Source of the DNA: Kondoa subrosea
Lineage: Eukaryota
DNA: 64,000 bases
NCBI GenBank assembly: GCA_039545335.1
Contig: BCIN01000003.1
Location: 992,001-1,056,000 of the forward strand
Direction of reading: 5' to 3'
Part shown: one piece after another, positions 43,436-61,870 of the stretch
Numbering within the stretch: position 1 is the stretch's first letter
Layout of the letters: each line of letters starts with the position of its first letter
Position numbers and translations under genes: made by a program
The notes under the pieces: model-generated
Databases searched by the model: none
Seen by the model: only the letters and a program-made list of their open reading frames with translations
What the model was told of the DNA's origin: nothing

Positions 43436-46400
43436 ATGAAGTTCTATATCGAGTGAGCAGTACTCATCAGAGCAGAGACTACTGATCTCAACTGTATGTG
43501 TTTGCTCAGTCAACTGCCCGTCAGTCTCACCTTGGCTTTCCTTTGATTACGTAATCTCACTTCATCTGCTTCTGCTCTTGCTTGCTCAACAGGTGCTCTT
43601 TCCGTATGAGCGCGTATATCCCGAACAGTATGCGTATATGTGCGACCTGAAGCGAACGCTTGATGTTGGAGTGCGTTTGCTTCAATATTGAGCTTGAAAT
43701 ATCTAAAAGGATGAAATAGGGTCATTGCGTGCTGGAAATGCCTTCGGGGACAGGCAAGACCGTATCTCTTCTGTCTCTGATCGTTTCCTATCAACAAGTA
43801 GCTTATTTCTTCTTAATACTGGCTGCTCTCATGTACTTCAACAGTTCTTTCCGGAGCGTAGAAAACTCATCTACTGCTCAAGAACGGTACCGGAGATCGA
43901 GAAAGCCTTAGCGGAATTGAAAAGATTGATGCAATACCGCAAAGAGCAACATGGGCTGAACGAAGAATTTCTTGGTTTAGGTTTAACAAGTCGAAAGAAT
44001 CTATGTGTGCATCCTCAGGTTCGTAGAAGTGCCTTCCTACCATTCTATACGTGGTAAGAGATGGCGCCAATCGAACAGGTTTCGAGGGAGAAGAAAGGCA
44101 AAGTCGTCGATGCTAGATGTCGAGATCTTACTTCCGCCTGGGTAGCTAACAAGAACAAAGAGGAACCTGGTTCAGTCGAGCTGTGTGATTGGCATGAGGT
44201 CGGTCATGACGGTCATTGCTAAAATCTAGCTGAAATTTCAGTCGGCGCCGACAGAAATTAGGCGAACTTGAACCTGGTGCTCTGGTCGGCAAACAAGTCT
44301 ACACATTAGATGAAGTCAAAGGCTATGGTGTCAGACACGGAATTTGTCCTTATTTTGCAGTTCGACGCATGGTCAGCCTTCATTCTGATAGCTCATTCTG
44401 ATCCTAAATAGCAAGGCTGCATGACAGTTACCTTATGCCGATGTCATCATTTATTCTTTCCACTACTTGCTGGATCCAAAAGTCGCTGACCAAGTATCGA
44501 AAGAAATGTCAAAAGATGCTATCGTAGTGTTCGACGAAGCACATAATATCGGTTCGTTCTGGCAACGACCGCGCGAAGATCATATTTCTAAGGTCATTTT
44601 TGCGAACAGATAACGTTTGCATTGAGTCGCTCAGTATCGATCTGACGAGGCCTATGCTCGATTCCGCAGCAAGGAGTGTCAACAGCTTGACGGAAAAGAT
44701 TGCAGAGTCAGTGGTTGTTTATATATGATCTGACCATATCTTACTCGGATCCACTTATTGACAGAATCAAAAGAACGGATTCAGACAAGCTCCAGAATGA
44801 ATATGCTCGATTAGTCGAAGGATTGCAAGAAGCAGATGCAGCAAGAGACGAAGACTCCTTCATGTCTAACCCAAGTTTGTCGAGGTTTTATCCCTGAGTC
44901 TTGTGCATCTTTGACGAATGTATAGTCTTACCGGACGATATACTTAAAGAAGCTGTTCCTGGTAATATCCGACGAGCTGAGCATTTCACTGCTTTCTTGG
45001 CTAGATTCGTCGAATACCTAAAGGTTAGACAGATCACTTTCAGTGCAACTTGAACTCGAACTGAAATGTTTGCGACCGGACAGACTCGCATGCGCGTTCT
45101 GCATGTAGTTGCCGAAACTCCTGCTTCTTTCTTGCAACATCTGAAAGATCTTACCTTTATCGAAAAGAAACCTCTCAAGTGAGCAGCAAAATATTGTGTC
45201 AGTCGGTTCAGGCTCATAATAGCCAATAGGTTCTGCTCAGAACGACTCACATCCCTCGTCCGAACACTTGAACTGCAGCGACTGGATGAATTCTCTTCTT
45301 TGCAGAAAGTAGCTGCCTTCGCGACTCTGGTCGCAACATATGACAAAGGTTCTTCGGACATGCTGCAATCAGAATTCAGCTGATTCACAGTTTTCCGAGT
45401 GAACAGGCTTTCGCTTGATCCTTGAACCTTTTGAGACTGAAAATGCCAGCGTACCTAATCCAGTCTTCCATCTCACTTGTCTTGACGCTTCTTTGGCTAT
45501 GGCACCAGTTTTTGAGCGATTCAAATCGGTAGTCATCACATCCGGAACGATTTCGCCTTTAGACATGTATCCGAAAATGCTTGGATTTCAAGCCACAGTA
45601 CAAGAATCTTACGCCATGACGCTTACGAGAGATTGTTTCATGCCTTTAGTCATCACTCGAGGAAGCGATCAGGTTGCTATTTCGTCTAGATTCGAAGTCA
45701 GAAACGATCCAGCTGTGGTCAGAAACTTTGGTACTATTCTCATTGAATACTGCAAAGCTGTCCCAGACGGGATTGTCGTCTTCTTTCCTTCATATCTATA
45801 CATGGAATCGATTGTAGCAGCATGGAACGATATGGTATGAGTCATTTGATATCAGCCGTTGAGTGTGTTGACTCTTGAAAAGGGCATCTTAAACGAAGCG
45901 TGGAAGCATAAGCTGATCTTTGTGGAAACACCGGATGCAAACGAAACGAGTATAGCGCTGGATAATTACCGCAGAGTGAGCTTTCTTATATGCATGCCGA
46001 ATTAAGCTAAAGAAGGAAAAGGCATGCGACAATGGTCGTGGTGCTGTCTTACTGTCTGTCGCTCGAGGCAAAGTGTCAGAAGGTATCGATTTCGATCATA
46101 ATTATGGTCGAGCTGTGATAAGTCCGTTTGATGGAATCTGCACTTTACAAATACTCAGATTCAACGTAGTGATGGGCATTCCATACCAGTATACTGAATC
46201 TCGAATTCTGAAGGTCGTTCCATTCTTTTTGAATATACGCTTTTCACTTAATCCACTATAGGCGCGATTGGAATTCTTAAGAGATACTTTCCGCATCAGA
46301 GAGAATGATTACCTCACTTTCGATGCCATGCGTCATGCAGCTCAATGTGTCGGACGTGTCTTGAGAGGTAAATCGGACTACGGCTTAATGGTGTTCGCAG

Positions 46401-46880
46401 ACAAGGTATGTTCAGACGACACAAAAGTCTGCTATGCTCTAACGTTGGATTCCATAGCGCTTTGCCAGAGCTGATAAAGTATGTCCAACATGTCTCGCGG
46501 ATTGCACTGTGCTTTACATATTCTTGCAGCGAGCAAAACTGCCAAAGTGGATCAATCAGTACATCAATGAAGCAGCTACAAAGTACGTGTATTTGCTGAA
46601 ATGAAGTATCTTGCGCTGACGCTGCTGGTGCAGTCTTTCGACCGACGTTGCCTTGGTCATGTCGAAGCGTTTTTTGCGAAGTATGGCTCAACCTTTCGAC
46701 CAAAACCAGACGGGTATCAGTTTGTGGTCGCTCGAAGATATCGAGGCGAAGCAGCAGCAGCAAAGAGACCAAAACATGCATCTTGACAAAGCTGCGCCTG
46801 CTCCAGATGAGAACAACTATTACGAGGGACTAGAAGATGCAGCACTAGTAGAAGGGATGATGGCTATCGATGAGATGTAA
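43436..46880 (+). CDS. RAD3: TFIIH/NER DNA helicase XPD (Rad3/Rad15/ERCC2), many exons including a 10-nt micro-exon
   Basis: [32 protein letters not shown], Fe-S region [56 protein letters not shown]. Confidence 0.98.
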
Positions 46881-46900
46881 CTACAATGTAAATGTGGAAA
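46788..46900 (+). repeat. Left copy of ~115-bp direct repeat (last ~30 codons, stop and start of 3' UTR of RAD3)
   Basis: Aligns to 50343-50461; 60 nt identical (46824-46883 = 50385-50444). Confidence 0.95.
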
Positions 46901-47142
46901 TGCAAGTGACGGTTATGAACAGGCTCTTCTACTTCTGCCCCAGACTTCCACCAGACCTGAACAGCTGAATCAGGTCAAAGGGAATCGCAACCAGGAGAAT
47001 TTGCCTCTGGCTCCTTATTATCGGGTCACCAAGGCGATCGTAGAAGAATGCTTCAAACGCTGCAACCTTTGGGAAGGAAAGATAACAATAGCAATCAGCG
47101 ACTAGCTCAGCGATGTAACAAACAGCAGCCAAAGATAATTGG

Positions 47143-48352
47143 GTCGAAGCGAAGGGTCAAGTCGACAGAGTTTGCGCACTTGAAATGCCAACATCAAGGC
47201 TGCAAAGGAGAACGCACGAGAGGAGCTTCTACAGGCTGGTCCGAAGGTAGCAAAAGCTACAGAGAGCACATCACCCGAGAAGCTAGCGTTTTGTTTGCCG
47301 TAAGATTTGTCATCGACGGTAGGTATAGACGGTACAGAAGAAATGACTCGGGCGTAATTGCACGAATAGAGGCTTCTCGCACTTGTAATCACAAGGCGAT
47401 ACAGCAGGACGCGCACATGGCTTCTATGGGTTGGTTCAAGGTAGCAAGCTACTGGGATCGCGGCACTTGGAAGCAGGCGTTGGTGATGTGCAAGTCTCGA
47501 TGCGAAGCAGAAGAAGATATCAAGGGAGACAAGAAAGTAAGCAGACCTACCCTGTGATGGAAGGATTCCAAAGAAGCTCCAACCTATGGACGAAAGAAAG
47601 CAGCAGAAATCAGCTACCAATTAAAAAGAAATGACTGATGACGAGAGCAGACGACCGCATCGGGCAAAGTTGCATGACCCCGAGGCTTCCAGCACTTGAG
47701 AGTCTTCAAGGCAGGAAAGCAGAACGCGGGAAGGGCTTCAAGTTTAGTTGGTCCAGGGGTAGCAAGCTACTGAGGGCACGTCACTCAAGAAGCATGCGTT
47801 GTCGATAGGGGAAGCCCGATGCGATCAAGCAAGAGAAGGTAACACGGCAAACAAGCTGAGAAGGAGACCTACTCTTAGCAAAGGAGTGGTTGAAAAGACA
47901 TCCCAAGTCTCAAGTTTACAACAAGTTGATAGGTGGCGACCTTTATGGGAATGCGCTGAAGGCTATCGTCAAGTCTAATACCTGAATGTTGCTGCTATGC
48001 GCAGCGTGTAACTGTTTCTGCCAAAACGGAGCCGGCTGCTTTCAGTAGCTCCGACGCTCACAGGGGATTGTGAAAGAGGAATTCGCCTGTGGACAAAAGA
48101 AAGCACGTGAGCCAATAGTCCTCCAAGAACGAAGGAACAGAAGAGCAAAAGATCGCGTCGGACGGATTGCACGGAGTGAGGCTTGTCGCACTTGAAAGGA
48201 CAAGGCAGCAAAGGCAGACGCATAGAGGGCTTCTATGGATTGGTTCTAGGGAAGCAAGCTTCTGGGAGCACGTTATTTGAGAAGCATGCGTTATCACCCC
48301 GCAAAGTCCAAGACGATCAACAAGAAAGTAGGATGCGGACAAAGAGACCTAC
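47143..48352 (+). ncRNA. Array of four diverged ~150-175 nt structured repeats (putative ncRNA units), family unknown
   Basis: Shared anchors GCACTTG (47176, 47379, 47692, 48188), CAAGGC, ACGC, GCTTC, G(T/A)AGC-AA(AA)-GCT(A/T)C, GAAGC, GCGTT. Nested helices are retained through compensatory changes and G-U pairs on the + strand. Frame-breaking indels between copies argue against coding. Confidence 0.65.
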
Positions 48353-48599
48353 AACGTGCAAGAAGCTTGTTGTCCATATTGTTGCAAGAAGAGAAGTGCA
48401 AGAGCGGGTGAGAAGAAGCGTCAAAGAGGCGAAAGTATGGATCAGAAAGAAGCAGGATACTTAGAAAAATGCACGATTTTATTCACTGGAATGTAACGGG
48501 ACACCGCTCGGAGCCGAGAACAGCACACACTAAAGCCCAGGGCGGTGGCTCGACAGTCCAAGGTGCACCAAAAGTAGTCCGTTGGTCAGTTTCGAAAGG

Positions 48600-49840
48600 G
48601 TAAAGAAAGAGCACGAGTAGCGACGCGGAAGAAAACGTTCAGACATAGATGAGGGATAGATACAGTAGCAGAAGATGCAGAGGACGACGCAACAAAGGCA
48701 GAAATGTTCAATCGAGCGCAATCGCATTCCAGTCGGATCTGCGCATGACTTTCGAAGGAGAATGAAAGGTGATTGCACTGGAGAGATCCACTGCTCCTTG
48801 ATACAGCCAGGGCAGACAATAGACAATGCATATCGAGCTAGAACATCGTTCAAGTGCAACCTCGCTCTGTTTTCCATGAGCGAAAGTCATGCACTGTGTT
48901 TTCGGTACTTTGTGGCCTTCTGCAGCAGCAGCAGCAAGCGCAAGACATGCTGCGGATCACTTCAAGGCTCGCTAGACTCTGATCGGAGCTGACCTCTTGT
49001 GTTTGCGAAACATCGAAGTTGCAACATATCAGATCCTAGACACTGGACTGGAAGCAGGCCTGAGCAAGCAAGATATTGTGCTGATGCTCAGCAGAGCCTA
49101 TGGACCCATTCTCGAGGCAATCAGAGCTTTCCTGCGCGCTGCCTGCAAAACGGAACAAGGCACTCCATCTGGAGTATTCAGCAGTCTTATTCTTCAGCTG
49201 TTGCACTTCTTCTAGTCTTCTACCTTCTTAGCCGATGGTCTTGTTCCGTTAGTCGCGATACAGGCTTTTGGCAATCTCTTTACTATGCGAAGATACATGA
49301 ACATGATGCGCTTCGAATTTCGAGAGGATGACGGTGCAATTACCTATATGAAAGGCTTTTGCAGATCATCTTGCGGTTGTACGTGCACTTGACGCGCCAG
49401 CGCACGAGCTCAGGGCTGATTTCTAGAAGTGGACAATCATCCTGGATCTAGCTGTCGTTTGGTATAGTGCAGTCGCAAAGTTCAGCGCTCCTTCTCATGC
49501 AATTCAAAGCTGAAGAAGACCAAGAATGGGCAACAACTTCACTTCGAGCTCATGCAAACTCAATCAGCGCATCGTGCTTTTGGTCAAAGTTGCGCTCCAA
49601 CGAAGCTAGCAGCCAAATGCTTGAGATTGGTGCTTGAGATTGGAAATTGCTCTCTCTCTCTCTCAGGGCTACAGAATTCAAGTTGTTTGATCATATCGAA
49701 CCAATGGAGCAATCAAGCAATACCTACAAGGCGAAGATTGGCACGCAAGCATCCACTCCAAGACGGAGCGTTGATGTATGGCGACGGACGTAGCCCTATT
49801 ACGAGCGACACCTGGAGAAGAGGGTTGATTAAGTGCTAGA
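48600..49840 (+). pseudogene. Decayed ORF remnant of unknown family
   Basis: Protein-like frames interrupted by stops (e.g. ...LQLLHFF*SSTFLADGLVPLVAIQAFGNLF..., TAG at 49213-49215) and an intron-like gtacgt...ctgat..tag at ~49379-49426. Confidence 0.35.
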
Positions 49841-50342
49841 ACAGACACTAGCTAATAATGATTGCAATTCATGAAGCTCATTGATTTCCGCTCTACTGCT
49901 TCTTGTTTGAATGGCTCTCTCATTGTTCGCCTTCGTCATCCTCCTTTCTAGTCCATGCTTTCGCGTTCTTTAGCCGGTCTAATGCAATGCTCAATGCAAA
50001 GAAGCAACAGGCTGTCCTTCTCCACTGGATATCTGTGCGCTATCAAACTCTATATCTCTATAAGTCGACAACAAGCAGGTTTCTGAATAGCACTATGGGG
50101 ACTAATTGCTTCTCTACAAGCATCTCTGCCAGCTAATTTACTACAGAACCGTTATTCTGCCTTCCATCTCTCTACTCATCAAGTAATATAACGTCATCCT
50201 CAGCTCGGCGAACCGCTTCTCCTAACGCTGCGCAAGCTTTCAATGTACTCTTATAACCGATGCCACTCTGTATTCTCCACTGACAACAGGAGACAACACG
50301 AAACAAGAAGAAGAAGAAGGAAGAAGAGAGAACAAGAAGAAG

Positions 50343-50461
50343 AAAGCTTTGCCTGCTTCAGACGAGAACAACTATTATGGATATGAGGGACTAGAAGATG
50401 CAGCACTAGTAGAAGGGATGATGGCTATCGATGAGATGTAACTATAATGTAAGTGTGGAAA
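50343..50461 (+). repeat. Right copy of the RAD3 3'-end direct repeat (orphan gene tail)
   Basis: Encodes [32 protein letters not shown], versus RAD3 [30 protein letters not shown]; no RAD3 sequence precedes it. Confidence 0.95.
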
Positions 50462-50468
50462 CAAGACC

Positions 50469-50650
50469 GGCAAACTGGATGCTGACTAATCACTAGGCCA
50501 TTTCGAGGGGCAAATGGCCTGCTGACTAAGCGCATCGAATATCAGAGAGAGGGCGAGCTAGACATATAACTGATCTGAAAGAACTCGGATAGGAAGCATA
50601 GATAGGAAGCATAGTCTGCAATAGAGTCATATACTGATCTATGAAAACTC
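50469..50650. repeat. Cluster of short direct and inverted repeats (candidate recombination or binding site)
   Basis: TGCTGACTAA x2 (50480, 50520); inverted repeat AGGCCATTT/AAATGGCCT (50495-50520); CATATA(A)CTGATCT..AACTC x2 (50563, 50628); tandem ATAGGAAGCATAG x2 (~50589-50614). Confidence 0.6.
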
Positions 50651-50673
50651 TGTCCTTGTTACCTTTTGCATTT

Positions 50674-53600
50674 CTATCGCCTGTTGACATGTGTCGCACA
50701 TTTCTTCCCTAAACCGATCATCACTCTGATATCACATCCGTGATAGTCACATATAGGTGACGGTTTGCCTTTTCGCTGCTGGTACAAATCAAGGCATTCG
50801 AAGGAGCAGAACTTGGCCTTCTTGTTGCTGCAACGTTGATTGCATGCGGAAGACTCGCAAATCTTTTTCCCGTTTCCGTCGAGCTTTGCAGCCAAGGAAG
50901 CTTGTTGGTAGCAACGACTGCACTTGTTGCCAGCTCCCCGAAAGATCCTGGTACACGAACACATTTTCTGGGGTTTTTGAGCGATCACAGCTGTAGGACT
51001 TTGTTGAGCTGATGACGAAGAAGGTCTCTTGCTAGATGTAAGAGCTGTCCGATGCTATTAATTGTAGCCAATGAAATGAAAGACTGCTGACCTTTGGCAC
51101 CACCGGCTTTACCGGAGTTTGCTTTATGATGAGATTTGCACCGACAAGGGCAGAGCGGAGCACAGTCTGAGGCGTTACTGAATGCTGGACAAGCGCGTTC
51201 TCTTGCAGAGACACACACTTTGCAGCCACAGTAGCAGCTGGCAAGATCATGACTCTCAGTTGTGCATCGACACAGGAAAGCTTTGTCGCCCCAGAACCAC
51301 GAAGAATGAAAGCTGTTGACGCTTGTGAACCGACCAGCTAGAAATTCTTCCCAAAGACGTGCTTTAGGAATACATAAGATGGGGAATACGGGTGAAATAG
51401 AGTGCAACTGACCAACTCGATTCCTGTCATCTATCCCAGATCGACCCGTTTGAAGTACGGTGGGAATGATGGTCTTGATATCGCCTTGAAACGAGGAAGA
51501 TTGCATCCCAGTGATGAATTTGCTCGAGCTTGAAACGCGATTGTAAACCAGGTCGGACATCGTTTCGTCTCCTTCCTGGAAAATGAGAATAGGACAGACT
51601 AGAGGTAGGCATTTGGCCACGCTATAGTATTGACCGTTGATCTGCAAAGCTTGTTCCATGCGTAATCCCATGTCAGCGAAGTAAGGTGAGAGGAGAGTAA
51701 AATCGGCCGGGTGCCATAAACAGCCAACAAAAGTCTGACATCGACGTGCTGCCATGTTTTTGATTTCTTCAAGATTTTCGACTGTGCGCGCAAGCCGATC
51801 TATAGAGGTGAACAAGACTAAAGAATCTTCATAATCGTCTTTATCTAGAGCAATCTCTACTGAATTTTCAATGCAAGCGGAAAGAGCCTCCAGAGTCAGG
51901 ACTTCACACTCAATTCCGGCGGGAACAAAAAGACGTAGAAATTCTCTTTGGCGCATGATTGAGTTGGAGCTTTCCAAAGAGGTACGAGATAAGATGACAA
52001 TACGCTGAAGAATATGATCGGTGCATACTTGCCTGAGCTGGCTTTTGATTTCGGCAACGAGAGCCAGCAGAGCTGAATCTTTCTCTCTGTATTGCTGAAG
52101 AACTCGATCCATCAGGAGAGCGGAATCCGTATAGAAGGCTTGCTCTTGAGAAAGAAGCAGGGCGTTCTTGAGGTGCAATCGAATAAGCGCTTCGTTATCC
52201 ACAATTGAAAACCAGGTTTCTGGACCAAGCTCTTGATCTTCTTCCTCATCATCATCATTGTGAAAAATACCATTCGCTTTGATAGCCTGATCACCATCCT
52301 TTGCAAGCGCTTCCAAATCCTCCTTCGTAAAACCTCGGGCGTAACAGCTAATACGATATCTTCGTAGGGACTCCATCATAAAAGGCAAATCATCTAATCT
52401 TCGGGTTAATCGATCAATATTGGAGAAAAGGATCATTGATCCCGGTTGCAAATTCGAAATCATTGTTGTGAAGGCTATTCGATCTTCCAAGGCATGACGG
52501 AAACTTGAAGCATGTTCATGAATTGTCGACAGCTCAAAGACATTGGCGAAGTCTTTTCGAAGTACAGAAGGGGGAGATGTAAGAGACGAAAGGATCTGGC
52601 GAGCAACAGATTCGTTTGCCTTGGTAGAACGATCTTCGTCCGATGTTCGTGCGTATACGACGCATGACGGTTGTCTGGCCACTGATGGATCGAGAGGAGG
52701 TAAATCGCTAAAGTCGAAGAGGTCTTCAGCAGGTTCAGAATTGACCGAGAATGCTTTTCTCAAGTGTGGAGCAATGATTCTATCGACCAACACCCTTGAA
52801 AGCATGCCATCTTCTCGAAAGAGCTTGCGTAAATTAGAAGAATAATCCAGTTGCGTATGCTTGCCAAGATTGAAGAGATCAGGATCCAGAAGATGTACTT
52901 CTTCCAGAGCGGTCGATAATTCATGCGCGTCATCTTCATGGAGCTCTTGAGGAGAGAATATATGAGGGGAGTGACCAAGCAAAGGCTGATGCACAACCAG
53001 AACTTGAAGCTTGCCAGAGCTGACGAGAGCTATATCTTTGGGTAGAGGACAAGACACTTTGTAGATGTATAGCTTCTCTTGAGCCATCCCATTACCCAGC
53101 AGTACTCTTTGGAGAGGTACCAGATTGATGTCCGGTAGGTTTCGCCAGTCCTTATAATAGCCAAGAAGCTCACTAAGCAAAGACTTCAGATTGTAAACTT
53201 GAGGAGTCGATGCACCTTACTCGAAGAGCTGCTGCTTCTCAGAACCTTTCACTTTATCTAGATCAAATTCTTCATCTTCTTCAAGCATGTTCATATTGTC
53301 TCGCAAGATCGCTCTCAAAGTATTTGCAGGACAGCCAGTACATGCTCTGAACGAGGATATTGACTTGTTGATGCTTGCAGAAATGGCAAAGAATTCATAT
53401 TCAGCATCAATAGCTTGGCCATGTTGAAGACTGATCAAGTAAGATTGTGCAAAATCGCTATTGCTTTCTGTCAGAATTCTTGAGCCACGGTGACGGTCTG
53501 TTCGCACGCCTCCAAAAATGCCACCAACTGGCCAATACTCGAAGGTAGTAATGGTATCTGATCGTCGAAAGACGTTGATAATGCAAGGTATTCTTCTCAA

Positions 53601-54563
53601 GTTCGCTGTGACCTCGTCCAAAGAGTCTTCAGATATATACTTGAAGTGATGGAGGATAGAGACCAGATGTAAATCATCTATTTGCTCACAAGAAAGTATT
53701 GAGATGCCAATTGAGTCGGTGAGCATTTGGGAAAGAGAGGTAGAAGCAGTGGAGGAAGGAGCAAGGGATGAGCGGCTAGTAGAGCTACAGGATGGTTGTT
53801 GATGCTTTGATGAAAGAGGTGGTCGAGGGGTTGAACGAGGTTGAGTAGCTTGAAACGTGGTTTCCAACAATTCAAAGATAGCCGGCGTGTAATGACTATG
53901 TTCTCGTTTAAGATTGATAATTGGCGCTGACTGTTCTTGAGCGTTTATGTGAGTGATTGTAGTGATAATCGCGCCTTCTCCTTCTTCGATGATTTCGCGG
54001 ACATCCGCAATCTGAATAACGCAGCTGAGAGCTTTTGCTAGACAAGTGATTGCCAATGTGTCGGCCCAAGTACTGGTCTTTCCCATCTCCCAACGCCAAC
54101 GAACTTGCAATTCATCAGCAGTCCAGTTCTCCTCCGTTTCCGCCCACTCTCGAAACATTTCATCATATCTTGTGGTGAATAATCCAAGATCTTGAGCCTG
54201 CCAGTCAATGTCGGCCTGGTTGATGCACAGATTTCTTAATTCATCCGCTAAGTTTCGATCTACGTTGCCCGAAAGTGCGAACCCGACAGAGGTAAAGAAG
54301 CAGGAACCATCCGGAGGAACTTCAGCTCTTGTTGTGACTGATATCAGATCTACGCGATAATCTTCTTCCGGTATTAAAGCAGTGTTGGGTTCAACCGCAG
54401 CATTTACTTGAAAGAGGTTACGAAGCAGAGGATAATCTTGTCCTAAGTGCCGTTCGTCTAAAGAGTAAGAGCATCTCGCTTCTTGTCGAGAACGCTTCGA
54501 AGTTGAATCTGGCAAAGAAGGTGAACAAGCTCTCTTGCTAGGTGTAGCAGCGGGGAAAGCCAT
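50674..54563 (-). CDS. ~1247-aa multidomain protein: OTU-like cysteine protease + two tandem serine-recombinase (resolvase-like) domains + Cys-rich putative Zn-binding tail
   Basis: OTU motifs EVPPDGSCFF, TWADTLAI, HSHY. SR1 CVVYARTS...ESVARQ...NIDRLTRR. SR2 IVILSRTS...SIMRQREFL...SIDRLART. Predicted GT-AG introns 53220-53173 (48 nt), 51412-51362 (51 nt) and 51091-51045 (47 nt) join three ORFs into one 3744-nt frame. Confidence 0.8.
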
Positions 54564-55503
54564 TCTATCAGGACCTGAACTGTCAGCAAAGCTGATTAGC
54601 TAAAGCCAAGAACCTACGTGTCCTAATACAGCAGCTTGATAAGTAGCGAAGGCGAGCGTGATCTGCAATCTAGATTTGAGTGTTGTACATCGTAGGATAG
54701 CTAGAAAACTGACAAGGTGCTTGATTGATGCAGTGCGAACATACGAGGCTGAGAAACGCGCAAAGCTTGAACGAGCGGTTTCGCAGATGAAGAATAAGCG
54801 CAAGACCATTGAAGGTTCTCCAGAACAACCTGTGAGTGTGCGAAAGCTTGACAGAGGTCTTCGCTAAGCATTGCAAACACATCTGAGGCATCGCTGAGCT
54901 CTTGACATAGCCCTAGCGAATCTTGCAAGCCAAATCATCGCTCCGCGTTTCCTTCCAATTTCTTCCCTCTTCCTCTGTGGCTCTTGTCATTCTTTTCGCG
55001 TGTGCAGATGCAGCACGCTGGCATGTTGTTGCGTGAGTCGCTCAATCAAGCGACGGAAGAATAACGAGCATTTGATCTATCGTCCTCTTTCCTTCAACTT
55101 CTTTTGGGCTGAGCAGCGACAGCTTTCATATGATCTCTCTCTTCCTTTCCATTGCATCACTTTTGGGAAGTCCGGGTATAAGGTCGTTACGCTGTTGGGA
55201 CAGGCACGGCTTGAATCGAGTGGTGGTGTGATTCGTCGGCTAACGGGCAACAGCCGTGTCACAAAACCTATCTCGTCTGAAAGCTAGGACGCTGTTCTGT
55301 CCGCTGTATCCCCAGCAGATTGATTCTGGACTCCGGGAATTGGTGCAAACCTGGATTGTATTTGGTTTTGTTTTTTTTCTGTATTCACATATCTTTGCCT
55401 CTGTCTCGATGACAATCGCCTCTTGTCGATAGTGGCCATCCAATTCGCTGTATGTTTCACGCAGATCGATGTCTGCTTTTCTCATGTGATGATCTTCTGA
55501 AAG

Positions 55504-56730
55504 CATCACCATGGACGACGAACCTTCTATCACACGGCTCATGGTAGTCTAGCATACTTCCTCTTCTTCTATTTGATTGCGCAAGTCGGATGCGGCATCT
55601 TTCTCAAACCTTATGAATGGAAGATTGATTCGCGACCTCGCGCTTAGCGCATAGTCAGTTCGGCAAGATCTTTCCTGTATTGAAATGCATATAGATTGTG
55701 CTTGGTGCTATAACAGCTCTCGGATGTAAGCTACCTTCGTCTACTGTTCGCCTGGAGCTGACAATGGTATTTAGTCTGTATGTTTGAAGCAATAACTTTT
55801 CCTGTCGTCTTGTTTATGAGACTCGACGTCTATAGGCTTCAATGATCCACCTCCAGATGACTACCTGGGCCAATGTCTTGCTCAGTGAGCTGTCTGATAA
55901 CCAAGTCAACACTTGAAAGTGATGCCTCTTTCAGCTTCATCATGGGTAGCGCCTTTCAAGCTTATGGCATCTGTCTTCTCATCATGATAAGATACGGCCA
56001 ACCTTGGCTGGCGAAGCGAAAGACTAGCCAGGATTATTTGGATAGCTGGATGATCATGTGCTGGGGTATTGTCGGTCTCTCATCACTTTCGTCGCATTCG
56101 AGCCTTATAACGCTTATTAGATCAATACCTTTACGATGCACAATTTCTTTGGCTCAGAATCGCATTGGTTGCACAAAGGTGGGCAATATTGCAGTGTATA
56201 TGTGACCAATACATTGATTCCAACTATGCAGCATACGACGATGGTAAATTAGGCAAACTCTATACAGCATTCATGATCGGCTGATGCTTGAGCTTTAGGG
56301 TGTCGTCTGGTGGATTTCTGGCGCTGCTGGAATCTGAATGGGAAGGAACAGCCAAAGAAACGGTGAGTGATTACGCAACGCTGAATGATCAAAGCTCAGA
56401 TTAATTCCAGTCATTCCTGCATTAGTCATGGGTACAACAGGTCTAGCGATGGGATCTCATGCACAGAGTGATATGCTAGCTACGGTAAATCTACTTGCGA
56501 TCAGTATTAATCTCGCTCAATCCCTTTGTCAGATGGTTCACAAGATCTTCGGCATGACTTTGGCGCTATTTGCAGCAGTGCGAATAGTAGAAATTAGCTT
56601 TTTGCTCAAAGACAGCCATGCTGTTCAGTCACCTTCTTCTTTCCACTATCTTTCGCCCCTACAAAAAAAAAAATTGTTAGACCGTAGTCTAATCCACTCT
56701 GATCATGCGTGTCATCCTTGTGCAGGGGCC

Positions 56731-56762
<32 letters not shown>

Positions 56763-56970
56763 TTGTGTGTACATCAAAAGATGACAAAATCCGGAATGTT
56801 TGCAGGCCCCTATATATACTTTGTTTTGCAGAGCTGTAGCTTTTACTCTGCGAAGAAGATACGAGGAAGGCTGAGGATCTGATGAGGGCAGAGCGAGAAG
56901 AGCGGCCGCTCAGATAGACAATCCGCTCGACTGCAAAGACAAAAGCTATCTGGGAAACGGAGGAATGAGG
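55504..56970 (+). pseudogene. YTP1: YTP1-like (DUF2427/Ytp1) membrane protein, apparently 5'-truncated with premature stop
   Basis: HHHGRRTFYHTAHGSLAY, DDYLGQCLA..FIMGSAFQAYG, QHTTM|GVVWWISGAAGI*MGRNSQRN (TGA at 56335-56337), IPALVMGTTGLAMGSHAQ, MVHKIFGMTL. An A11 run at ~56663 and further stops lie near the end. Confidence 0.7.
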
Positions 56971-58194: not shown

Positions 58195-58945
58195 ATGATT
58201 CCCTCTTACAAACAACTACACGGAGGAGACGCATCTACTTCGGGCATCACAACCAAATTCAATTCAAGCGAACGAGTCATTCCTGAATCCTTAAGACCAG
58301 ACGGAACGTCAGTCTCCTTCGCTAGTCCTTCTATCGCTTATATCTTATCATGAATCGCAATAGAGTAAGGAAAGAAAGGAAAGTTCGACCTGGATTCACA
58401 CCACCTGAAGATGTAGGCAAATACAAGAATGCTAAAGTTTTGGATTGGGAAAAGAAAGCTTTACCTAAAGGTGCTGTTGTTGGCAGACCTGCTCCTCCTC
58501 CTGTCGTACCTGTGGTAGTGAAGAAGAAAAAGGAGAAGAAGAAGGAAGAAGTACCGCCTGATGATTGGGATGTAGAGGAAGTGAAAGTCAAAGAAGAACC
58601 GAAGGAGATTGATCCGGAGAAGAGAGTCAAGGCATTGACGAAGAAGCTGAGACAGGTCAGCAGCGTCTCAGTAGGTATAACAGATTGCTGATCCATACAT
58701 ATTGCTAGGCCGAGGCATTGAGGGAGAAAGCAACAGCAGGAGAAACGCTCTTACCTGAACAACAAGCGAAAGTGGATTCGATACCAGCAATGGAAGAAGA
58801 GATAGCGCAACTCTCTTCTGTGGACGATTTGACAGTAAATACAGCTAAGCTAGGCATCAAATCCAAGGAGGAGCTTCAAAGGGAATTAGAGGATCTGGAG
58901 GAGGAGCGGAAGAGACTGCTGGCACAGAGTAATGGAAATGCATGA
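58195..58945 (+). CDS. PYM1: Partner of Y14 and Mago (PYM/WIBG)
   Basis: ERVIPESLRPDGT|VRKERKVRPGFTPPEDV Mago-binding motif; KRVKALTKKLRQ...LLPEQQAKV. Confidence 0.92.
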
Positions 58946-59059: not shown

Positions 59060-60114
59060 ATGACTACGCAGCACACAGTATCAGTAGCAGAGAACTTATC
59101 AGGTTTATCGCACCACTCCAGACCAGGATAACGCTGCTGACTTGAACTCCGCTGAATCCAGATGAGGATGTCGTTCGTATTGGAGCAATGGTTGCCAAGG
59201 CGTTCGGTAGCTTGTCTCCCGAGATAGATCGTGAGTATAGTGGTCACTATCCAATGATCATATCGCTCATCTAGGGCATCTCCAGCTTTTGGAGTGCAAA
59301 TTCATGGATGTCCAGCAAGTTGTTTGGCAAGCTGCATCGGTCATGGATCTAATCTTCTGTCTCTTAGTATCGGGACAATGTCGAGCGATGGGAAGGTCGG
59401 TCATCTAAGCTTTTTCTACCCCGCAATATACAAACTCATCTTAACCTTTTGCTATAGCTGCATTTCGCGCCAGAGTCGCAGTGGGAAGAGAAGTCGGTAC
59501 AATCTTCACGCTTGAAGACAACAAAGGGGTCGCAATCTGCTTTGGTCCAGGAAAGAGTTTTGATCCCAAGGCTGGCGGAAAATTTGGCGAAGAAGATAAA
59601 GCTTTGCAAGCCAAAGATCCAGCTCGAGATCATTTTCTAGATAAAACAGTAAGGTTACAACTTGTGTATTGTGAATTACAGCTGAAATCCGTGTGAAATC
59701 AGCTCTGGCCCGCTATACATCATCTCGATTCAGAAGTCTTTCCCAACGATTTCACCAAGAAGAACTTTCATCTCTTCATCCTCGCTGTTGACGTCGATGC
59801 GCAACGTCAAGGTTGCGGAGGTGCACTGATAGAAGCGGTTGCTAAGAAGGTTAGCTACCTGAGTCAGTTGCGCTTCGCAAACACTCATGTTGTGCTAGGC
59901 TGCCGAGCATGATTGCGATGTGCTACTGGAAGCGAGCACGAAGCCGAATGTGGGCAACACATCTCCTCATTAAGTGTTACTGAGCTCAAATCTTGCGTCA
60001 CAGGTCGCTTTCTATAAGTCAAAAGGCTTTATACTCGAACGCGCCGGCAAAATTCCTGCTTTCCAGGAAGGAACTCTTGATTGGTACTGTATGCGTCGGC
60101 CACGAAGTCAGTGA
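59060..60114 (+). CDS. GNAT acetyltransferase (tandem paralogue 1)
   Basis: FHLFILAVDVDAQRQGCGGALIEAV, DVLLEASTKPN|VAFYKSKGF; multi-exon. Confidence 0.88.
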
Positions 60115-60638
60115 AGGAAAGATATCCGACTATTTTTGATGCGTTCATTTGAATTTGTATGTGTGCGAATCTTACTACAAGCGCGTTGCTGCCAGCATAC
60201 TGTATTGACGGTGCTGCATTCGATCTATTCTGACTCTCCTATCTCTCTGATTCTTCTGTTTCTTCCTCTCCCCTTCTTCTTCTTCTTCTGTCTGATCGTC
60301 ATAAGACTATGACCACCGCGTTCAAGGTTCGTCTTTCCTCTCTGTGGTTTCTCGCGTAGCGGCGAAGGCACGAAGAATATGAATGCGCACAACATGGCAG
60401 ATCAGTTAGTAAGCACAAGAGACCCAAAGAAGCGAGAGGAAAAGGAGAGCGCTAGCGAAGAGGCTCAGAACTAGCTCGACTACATGTGAGACTCGGATGT
60501 ATTGGGAAATCAGATAACGCGTCTCGTGACCAAAAATAACAGTTGCGGACTGCTTGCTCAGCGAGCAGCGGAGCTAATCGAAAATCTTGTAATCTTGACT
60601 TCCCGCTCGCTCGCTTCCTTGTTCCATAACGTCCAAAT

Positions 60639-61669
60639 ATGGCTATCCAGCATAAAGTATCGGTTGCAGAGAATCTATCAGGTAATTACAACTCTGCCTT
60701 CGATGGTGCTGTCTGTTCAAACTCCGCCGAGGCAGACGAGGATGTAAAACGGATTGCAGCGATGGTAGCCAGATCCTTTGGTAGCCTATCGCCAGAGGTA
60801 GATCGTAAGCATGATACGCATTCTGTGGCCTCTCCAGCTCAGAGAGTGCGCAGGATTTGGGCAACAGATTAATGGGTGTCCTGCAAGTCCCTTCTGTATA
60901 GCTTTTCTATCTACAAAAGCTAATAGCTGTCTCAGTACAAGGGCAATGCTGAGCGATGGGAAGGTCAGTCATTCTTTCGAGCATTGTTGGTTGGGCATTG
61001 TCAATTTGGGTATATAGCTGGATTCCGCGCCAGACTCGCAGTTGCAAGAGCAAAAGGCACAGTATTCACGCTCGAAGATAACAAAGGCGTAGCAATGTGC
61101 TTTGGACCTGGAACAGAGTACGATCCTACGGCTGGTGGACACTTTGGAGAGGAGGACAAAGCCTGGCAAGCTAAAGATCCTGCCCGACATAAGTATATAG
61201 AGGAAGAAGTGAGTCCACTTGATTAAGCGGCTGTTACCTGCTGATCGGTCTGGGTCAGCTCCTTCCTGCTGTACATCGCATGGACGATGAAGTCCATCCG
61301 AATGGATTGACCAAGAAAAGTTGGCAGATCATGATTCTCGCTGTTAGTGTTGATGCTCAAAAGCAAGGATGCGGGGGTGCATTGCTAGATGCAGTTTTTA
61401 AGAGGGTGAGCCCTTTGTCGATGTGCTTTCATGGGTCATTCATCTGTCAACAGGCTGACGAACAGGGCGTTGATGTTATTCTGGAGGCGACCACTGAACC
61501 TAACGTGCAAAGTCTCTCTTCCGCGAACGTTCTCAAGCTGAAATTTTGAGCGGTGCAGGTTGCCTTCTACAAATCTAAAGGCTTCCAAATCGAACATCCT
61601 GGTAAATTACCCGCGTTTGGAGGTGGAACTGCTGATTGGTACTGTATGCGCCGGCCGCGGACTCAATGA
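60639..61669 (+). CDS. GNAT acetyltransferase (tandem paralogue 2)
   Basis: WQIMILAVSVDAQKQGCGGALLDAV, DVILEATTEPN|VAFYKSKGF; same intron positions as paralogue 1 in the alignable exons. Confidence 0.88.
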
Positions 61670-61870
61670 AAGGCATTGCGTTTCTTTTACCGACGACTTA
61701 CCGATTGTTGCACGTTCTTGAGCATCGCTTCTATCGAACGGAATATAGTGTATCGCAGCAGAGCTATGACAACTGTGCTCTTATGCTGCTTTCTCTCTTT
61801 CTCTTTTCTACCTTCATCCTATCTTCAACATCTGCTTTGATTCGGAGGACAACATTGTTTTGTCTTCACA

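Follow-up and report, generated by a model that had tools for sequence, protein, structure and literature searches.

Duplication of the XPD/RAD3 gene end beside a tandem-resolvase gene in a Kondoa subrosea chromosome, with break repair as the tentatively favoured origin

In a 64,000-nt stretch of the Kondoa subrosea genome (contig BCIN01000003.1, positions 992,001 to 1,056,000; hereafter the window), a repeat search found the 3' end of the XPD/RAD3 helicase gene duplicated about 3.5 kb downstream in direct orientation. The two copies, called tail copy 1 and tail copy 2, enclose an interval of 3442 nt, and the second copy lies close to a gene that codes for an OTU protease domain joined to two resolvase-type domains. 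Our preferred explanation, to which we give a little less than an even chance, is that 113 bp of the XPD 3' end were duplicated once, in a break-repair event that was not site-specific, leaving tail copy 2 as a non-functional relic. It is preferred over recombinase-mediated integration of the interval, an origin that we consider possible and rather improbable.

The repeat pair and the XPD gene

The features that define the locus are the following, in window positions.

43560-46880 (start approximate), + strand: XPD/RAD3 (ERCC2) helicase gene, intact, with many short introns
46788-46900 (113 nt), + strand: tail copy 1, comprising the final 30 XPD codons, the stop codon TAA (46878-46880) and 20 nt past the stop
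50343-50461 (119 nt), + strand: tail copy 2, a repeat of tail copy 1 with no XPD sequence 5' of it
46824-46883 and 50385-50444 (60 nt each), + strand: identical core of the two copies, encoding 18 residues, the stop and 3 further nt
46901-50342 (3442 nt), unstranded: interval between the copies, single copy and without a convincing coding open reading frame (ORF); its + strand is purine-rich over 47000-49000
54563-50674, - strand: OTU-tandem-resolvase gene, 1239 codons, stop codon at 50674-50676

The repeat search aligned 46821-46900 with 50382-50461 (80 nt, 96% identity) and 46788-46822 with 50343-50377 (35 nt, 89% identity). Both blocks were merged by blastn into a single alignment of 119 columns with 89.1% identity (E 4e-41). 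A 54-nt stretch of the core has two matches in the window and had none in 100 shuffles.

The copies differ by seven substitutions (46794, 46795, 46803, 46808, 46823, 46884 and 46892 in the numbering of copy 1) and by one 6-nt insertion in copy 2, which resembles a stutter of the neighbouring bases. The reading frame is preserved despite this indel. From copy 1 to copy 2, the coding changes are GCG>TTG (A>L), CCA>TCA (P>S), GAT>GAC and TAC>TAT, the last two being synonymous, plus the added residues GY. The left arm contains five substitutions and the indel in 36 nt (the first 42 columns), the right arm two substitutions in the last 17. When seven or eight events were placed uniformly at random, a clean core of 60 nt like this one arose in 3.2% or 1.6% of trials, respectively. 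Four of the seven substitutions are C in tail copy 1 and T in tail copy 2, two of them at CpG, a pattern that fits what would be expected of an unconstrained copy.

One A>G change after the stop turns GTAAAT (46888-46893) of copy 1 into GTAAGT (50449-50454) in copy 2, the consensus hexamer of a 5' splice site. AG dinucleotides and branch-point-like CTGAC motifs occur 30-50 nt downstream of it.

Both homology edges are sharp. Alignments anchored at the edges and extending 15-90 nt past them found no homology (p 0.20-0.59 against 2000 shuffles each). The low-complexity stretches 5' of the two tails resemble one another only in composition. Within the window, neither a third copy of the tail nor a decayed XPD paralogue was detected by blastn with 7-nt words or by tblastn with the tail peptide. 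No inverted repeat of at least 8 nt, as would mark a dyad-symmetric crossover site, was found inside either tail copy; the sole inverted repeat in the first region scanned (46773-46784) sits upstream of tail copy 1. An exact 11-nt match to the core centre (AGATGCAGCAC) at 55006-55016, upstream of the start of the recombinase gene, was treated as chance, as about three such matches are expected per window by estimate.

Over 43590-46853, the window aligns exon by exon, in 6-7 blocks, with the XPD proteins of two relatives; these proteins gave no alignment anywhere in 46900-51000 at E<=1e-3. Judged by sequence, tail copy 1 is the genuine end of the intact XPD gene. One conserved exon matches 1945 XPD proteins, the best of them with 84-91% identity. 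Because the best exon matches are those of Puccinia, Austropuccinia, Phenoliferia, Sporobolomyces, Rhodotorula, Mixia and Atractiella, the comparison places the host among the Pucciniomycotina basidiomycetes, and no closely related sequenced species was present in the collection searched.

The duplicated piece is the variable, acidic C-terminal extension of XPD, outside the conserved helicase. Its core holds a short C-terminal motif, aromatic-x-G-[LIF]-[DE]-D-x-A-L, which recurs near the XPD end in relatives; an ad hoc pattern found it in the XPD tails of 22 of 43 relatives, with two of the 22 hits being spurious and further upstream. Both tails keep the sequence aromatic-x-G-L-E-D, and the relatives therefore give no clue to the ancestral side of the GY indel.

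The initial annotation of this locus had described the repeat with its 60 identical nucleotides, frame-preserving coding differences, a segment bracketed by direct repeats of a gene end beside a whole XPD gene, and a recombinase gene just outside the pair. This description was borne out in turn by the repeat search and blastn, by the alignment with its 6-nt indel and synonymous changes, by the XPD proteins of relatives, which align through the intact gene, and by a Pfam Resolvase match (3.7e-10) in the gene at 50674-54563. Two further claims were not supported. The target had been named as the conserved XPD gene, whereas it is the least conserved part of it that was duplicated. The tails had also been called independently evolved; since DNA identity between the two copies is 89%, against a protein identity of less than 50% for the nearest XPD tails elsewhere, tail copy 2 is on this comparison a recent copy of its own lineage's tail.

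Junction, interval and the case for break repair

Two further features lie at or near the edges of tail copy 2.

50305-50344, + strand: (AAG)n microsatellite of 12.7 copies, its final bases being the first bases of tail copy 2
50496-50519, within 50481-50529, unstranded: palindrome GGCCATTT-8 nt-AAATGGCC, flanked by two direct copies of GCTGACTAA

Both features are part of the case for break repair. The (AAG)12.7 tract runs exactly up to the left edge of tail copy 2, where the AAAG start common to both tail copies gives AAG/AAAG microhomology. The palindrome region starts 20 nt to the right of the copy, between it and the stop codon of the recombinase gene. The palindrome is unique in the window, where it has no partner, and is the only one near the tails, lying outside both; it may act as a terminator, a fragile site or a binding site for a protein. 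GAA repeats and palindromes are fragile sequences, and templated patch insertions arise at DNA breaks.

In the variant that we favour, a break would have occurred at the fragile (AAG)13/palindrome spot in the 3' flank of the recombinase gene and would have been repaired with a short patch templated by the XPD tail at a distance of 3.4 kb. The copying would have been primed on the AAG/AAAG microhomology, and the ends would then have been rejoined. Error-prone copying at the start and the end of the patch could have produced the differences in the first 42 and the last 17 columns, with 60 clean columns between them. The 3.44-kb interval would be native intergenic DNA, and XPD would have remained intact because the upstream copy is complete. 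A mirror variant makes the interval the insert at a staggered break, with a target duplication of 113 bp, and would give the same picture. The break itself, the mechanism of copying and the side of insertion are steps that we infer.

Other observations are in line with a break-repair origin. Tail copy 2 is an isolated fragment, and the open frame upstream of it has no ATG. The edges are sharp, the differences cluster at the ends of the copies, and the repeats contain no dyad-symmetric site. Linkage of XPD to the recombinase gene is not conserved in Rhodotorula paludigena, as described below. The locus resembles templated patches, long target duplications in break repair and duplications of retroposed sequence in that a nearby sequence is copied over a short, sharply bounded length, the junction carries microhomology and a simple repeat, and the differences gather at the ends of the copy. 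It differs from patches and target duplications in its length, with 113-119 bp being at the long end, and in the adjoining recombinase gene.

The interval carries no sign of being a multi-copy or recently foreign element, because it has no Pfam match, convincing ORF, terminal inverted repeat (TIR) or long terminal repeat (LTR), has native GC and CpG values, and assembles as an unbroken contig at the depth of its flanks. Pfam gave no match for the four interval ORFs scanned, and no remnant of XPD was detectable in the interval by tblastn (best E 0.034). Its codon-usage scores were within noise, the score being a weak one that barely separated real XPD exons, as the bias of this genome is too weak. 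No tRNA, no Rfam match even at E<=10, and no Helitron, TIR or LTR ends were seen in the interval. The observed/expected ratio of CpG is 0.81-0.82 compared to 0.82 for the window, and the GC content is also like that of the rest of the window. Pfam, repeat ends, composition and copy number together revealed no hallmark of a mobile element in the interval.

The interval contains one set of internal repeats.

~47163-47300, 47357-47553, 47682-47875 and 48166-48360, + strand: four diverged repeat units, 70-76% pairwise

Each unit is about 130-190 nt long with two conserved hairpins, one of which has T:A replaced by A:T in the fourth copy. The + strand gives the more stable consensus fold (-29.3 vs -19.5 kcal/mol), and two-sided changes occur in 8 of its 36 pairs, as counted from four copies only. 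The folds of the single copies are unexceptional (z +0.2 to -1.8). 'RNA array' is kept as a hypothetical label for the four units.

Copy number was assessed from the contigs of the only two public runs found to contain the region, both from one sample that is possibly the source of the assembly itself; these contigs were built on a 31-mer graph. The runs total about 19 million letters of contigs, and the genome is about 19 Mb. Contig ends fall exactly 30 nt inside each core, which is inevitable with a 31-mer graph, and the interval forms one unbroken contig of 3561 nt without differences from the window. The depth of the interval, written between those of its flanks, was 143/146/148 in run 1 and 53.5/55/52 in run 2, and the core had about double the depth of the flanks by our own arithmetic on depth bins. 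No other sequence in the contigs of this genome shares a 31-mer with the interval. These results fit two chromosomal tails and a single-copy interval. The 31-mer graph and the equal depths are also compatible with an empty site plus an equimolar circle; the contigs contain no empty-site joint or loose end at the repeats, which counts neither way, as the graph is blind to the difference between an integrated and an excised state.

Several points weigh against break repair. A rare, intact serine-recombinase gene ends 213 bp from tail copy 2, and such closeness of a repeat end to a gene end is found by chance in about 2% of 64-kb windows, according to a rough estimate. If the differences between the copies reflect time, a clean core of 60 nt is unexpected and suggests a crossover or a conversion tract. 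For a genome of about 19 Mb, a non-coding stretch of 3.4 kb separating two convergent genes seems long, which favours the interval as the insert. Patches of more than 100 bp and target duplications of 113 bp are both near the upper end of known sizes, and no break, polymerase or template switch is demonstrable from sequence. If the break-repair reading is true, the locus is an ordinary small structural duplication that spared an essential gene, and is of local interest only.

The OTU-tandem-resolvase gene and site-specific integration

The recombinase gene ends 213 bp to the right of tail copy 2, outside the repeat pair. It encodes, in this order, an OTU protease domain, a resolvase-like domain, a second resolvase domain and a Cys-rich C-terminus. 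An OTU ORF of 460 aa and a resolvase ORF of 743 aa lie in the same frame of the - strand, parted by one stop. A 48-nt GT..AG stretch (53220-53173), typical of the intron size in this genome, would remove the in-frame stop, and a 122-nt GT..AG stretch (51112-50991) would join the Cys-rich last ORF in frame. Both introns are putative, read only from their GT..AG borders and the frame.

Pfam recognised Resolvase (PF00239; 3.7e-10, above its cutoff) and OTU (1.5e-6) in the protein. The second resolvase domain carries R-x-S and D-R-L-x-R motifs and aligns by profile to the RVS and DRLGR motifs of Sin resolvase (8.3e-4). In an alignment of 15 family members, S413, S419 and R422 are invariant, while R411, R474 and R477 are at least 90% conserved; the nucleophilic Ser and the conserved Arg residues of a serine recombinase catalytic domain are thus present. 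A predicted model (mean pLDDT 65) matches the catalytic domains of Sin, gamma-delta, Tn3 and TP901-1 with a probability of 1.00 and a TM to target of 0.55-0.61, with Foldseek E-values for the whole chain of only ~3e-3 and low confidence in the C-terminal third of the model. No 'Recombinase' or zinc-ribbon match, as would characterise a large serine integrase, was found in Pfam or NCBIfam at E<=1 / 0.1, and no helix-turn-helix Pfam domain was detected in the protein. Compared to Sin, gamma-delta, Tn3 resolvases and large serine integrases, the protein shares the predicted resolvase catalytic fold and the aligned Arg-x-Ser and Asp-Arg-Leu-x-Arg motifs. It differs in its tandem catalytic-type domains, its N-terminal OTU (or, in one relative, USP) protease, its Cys-rich end, its putative spliceosomal introns and its fungal host.

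A HMMER scan of 1.84 billion representatives yielded 78 relatives at E<=1e-3, 31 at 1e-10 and 8 at 1e-30. PF00239 was present in 16 of 28 scanned relatives, and no other Pfam family was found in any of the 28. The first resolvase-type domain is degenerate in some relatives. Among 20 clusters looked up, nine bear an organism name, all of them fungi: Microbotryomycetes (three entries), Meredithblackwellia, Cyphobasidiales, Tremellales, Kwoniella, Coniosporium and Elasticomyces. Rhodotorula paludigena is one further fungal member. From these assignments, it appears to be a small family with a patchy distribution over distant fungal groups (Pucciniomycotina, Tremellomycetes and black-yeast ascomycetes). 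Neither phage records nor viral contigs yielded a relative, and the ESM Atlas gave only sub-threshold bacterial and viral rows. All named members are annotated as 'hypothetical', and no description of the OTU-tandem-resolvase family was found in the literature.

A metagenome scan recovered two overlapping contigs (L001/L002, overlap 54 nt) of one relative gene. In place of OTU, this relative has a USP-type Cys-box and His-box upstream of the tandem resolvase region (L002 887-2013), and different types of deubiquitinase seem to have been swapped in at the N-terminus within the family. Its flanks of 0.9 kb and 0.3 kb contained no tail-like peptide, flanking repeat or similarity to the interval. 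Linkage to XPD was compared in the one named genome that places both proteins, R. paludigena, where XPD (Rhopal_007369) and the recombinase homologue (Rhopal_004291) are on different contigs (835,409 and 1,354,873 bp).

Among the alternatives, site-specific integration fares best, although we consider it improbable. Here, the 3.44-kb segment would be a present or former integrative element that entered the XPD tail via an element-borne, tail-like site. The OTU-tandem-resolvase protein would have catalysed the reaction in trans, the tails would be attL and attR, and the 60-nt core would be their region of identity. Prokaryotic integrative elements and prophages target the 3' ends of tRNA or protein genes, for which they bring a replacement tail. 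The locus is similar to them in its direct repeats of a gene 3' end, which bound the segment as attL and attR do, in the whole gene, in the block of perfect identity and in the recombinase gene nearby. It differs from them in its eukaryotic host, in a recombinase of the serine class that lies outside the repeats, in the variable XPD tail as target, and in a segment without an integrase, another mobile hallmark or a second copy.

The geometry of direct repeats flanking a discrete segment beside a whole gene supports integration, as do the identical core between diverged arms (1.6-3.2% under uniform placement) and the seemingly intact serine-recombinase gene 213 bp away. A small and patchy family fused to a deubiquitinase, OTU here and USP-type in the metagenomic relative, also suits a mobile gene. 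However, the recombinase gene lies outside the pair instead of inside the element, and the host genes from 55.8 kb onwards exclude room for a third tail in a larger element. The crossover sites of serine recombinases are short and partly symmetric around a 2-bp overlap. These enzymes neither require nor leave behind long identity such as the 60-113 bp seen here, and the repeats lack dyad symmetry. In addition, no other copy of the segment sharing a 31-mer occurs in the contigs, the composition is native, neither segment nor tail fragment was found beside the one recovered relative locus (0.9 + 0.3 kb of flank only), and R. paludigena lacks the XPD linkage.

The initial annotation had proposed site-specific integration. 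Its geometry, the adjoining recombinase and the clean core stand; the recombinase outside the pair, the lack of a dyad site, the single-copy native interval and the unlinked genes of R. paludigena speak against it. Taken together, its description of the locus is right, the mechanism is open and its att-like reading is partly supported. The fuller claim, that the OTU-tandem-resolvase protein is the recombinase of an undescribed eukaryotic mobile or excisable DNA and uses the two 60-nt cores to integrate or excise the 3.4-kb segment at the XPD 3' end, is more doubtful still.

If the recombinase did act here, this would be the first case in a eukaryote of a serine recombinase integrating DNA site-specifically and restoring a gene tail, and it would assign a function to a fungal family so far annotated as 'hypothetical' and without a literature description found. 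If the 60-nt cores are its recombination sites, the system would be a serine-recombinase-driven counterpart, in a fungus, of the bacterial gene-tail-restoring integrative elements. Either way, two identical 60-nt sites in direct repeat beside the gene offer a simple substrate for probing the recombinase activity of the family.

The nearest published case is that of the IS607-type serine-recombinase genes in a Lachancea yeast, which have a different architecture (PMC2715888). The IS607-family genes of yeasts and other eukaryotes are reported as bacterial in type, low in copy number and of unproven mobility (PMC2715888; PMC6188088; PMC3627910). The gene found here is similar to them as a bacterial-type serine-recombinase gene of low copy number and unproven mobility in a fungal chromosome. 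IS607 proteins are short and TnpA-like, with an N-terminal DNA-binding domain and one catalytic domain, whereas the present family has another architecture. IS607 elements are reported to make no target duplication. Unlike for IS607-family genes, no TnpB or Fanzor partner was detected here.

Remaining alternatives and the surrounding window

Campbell-type integration by host homologous recombination is less probable than site-specific integration and, in our view, quite unlikely. A circle carrying the segment and a diverged tail of 113-119 bp would have crossed over once with XPD, and mismatch repair of the heteroduplex would have produced the clean core without a dedicated recombinase. Duplicated homology around an insert is the classic product of a single crossover, as with yeast integrative plasmids, and the locus shares with it a homology segment doubled around inserted DNA. 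A repaired heteroduplex would account for the clean 60-nt core between its diverged arms, and the edges are sharp. However, homologous recombination works poorly on a homology this short and diverged (113 bp, with about 13% divergence in the arms). A circular donor is not known, nor is any source of a circle bearing exactly this tail fragment. The microsatellite exactly at the junction and the neighbouring recombinase gene are both left unexplained by this route.

Retroposition is very unlikely. Under this explanation, the interval is the cDNA of a long non-coding + strand transcript that was inserted by a reverse transcriptase of the LINE type, its A-rich tail later turned into (AAG)n, and the two tail copies are the duplicated target site, at an exceptional length. 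Both flanking repeats start with AAA, and the insert ends 3' in a purine/A-rich simple repeat, on the same strand that gives the better RNA fold; the strong purine skew of the + strand and the lack of ORFs would also agree. Against it, 113 bp is far above the usual length of target duplications, and the tract is (AAG)n and not a decayed poly(A). No reverse transcriptase was found among the 98 ORFs of at least 100 aa in the window (16 Pfam-scanned or known, 82 scanned separately), and the contigs hold no parent copy sharing a 31-mer. The clean core is also unexplained.

It is highly improbable that tail copy 2 is functional coding sequence retained by selection, either as an alternative final exon of XPD or as the final exon of an unannotated gene within the interval. 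The frame is maintained through the 6-nt indel and two synonymous changes and is open for 39 codons further upstream, and the core that encodes the motif is unchanged. Yet a frame open for 39 codons is estimated to occur by chance in about 15% of cases at this composition, the upstream frame has no ATG, and the interval has no convincing exons. Splicing from the donor of the last XPD intron would lose the conserved MAQPF segment, and selection on the protein would not preserve every synonymous site of the core.

An assembly artefact, in which an uninterrupted XPD-recombinase junction and a separate 3.56-kb circle or unplaced piece were threaded together via the shared core, has the slightest chance of all listed explanations: a 31-mer graph from one sample, maybe the source itself, cannot separate left-core-interval-core-right from left-core-right plus a circle, but the depth of the interval equals that of both flanks in both runs, the core has about twice that depth, and the copies differ on both sides of a core of just 60 nt, which is spanned by reads of ordinary length. 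The weight left over from all of these explanations goes to ones we have not thought of.

To the right of the recombinase gene, the odd region gives way to ordinary host genes.

55861-56781, + strand: Ytp1-like gene, an ordinary host gene bounding the odd region on the right
58326-58688: Mago-binding gene, a host gene to the right of the Ytp1-like gene

The rest of the window is an ordinary fungal chromosome, with a fungal transcription-factor domain, L28e, GNAT, Cns1, a GPN-type ATPase and an O-methyltransferase. At 55426-55971, the contigs are fragmented, carry variant letters and have a higher depth, and a 563-nt contig matches 55426-55546 with four differences and diverges leftward. Because of these features, at least one paralogous copy of this stretch is predicted elsewhere in the genome. 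Finally, two diverged direct repeats about 1560 nt apart were observed at 59362-61670 (115 nt at 73%, 43 nt at 81%), and these look like a tandem pair of paralogous genes.

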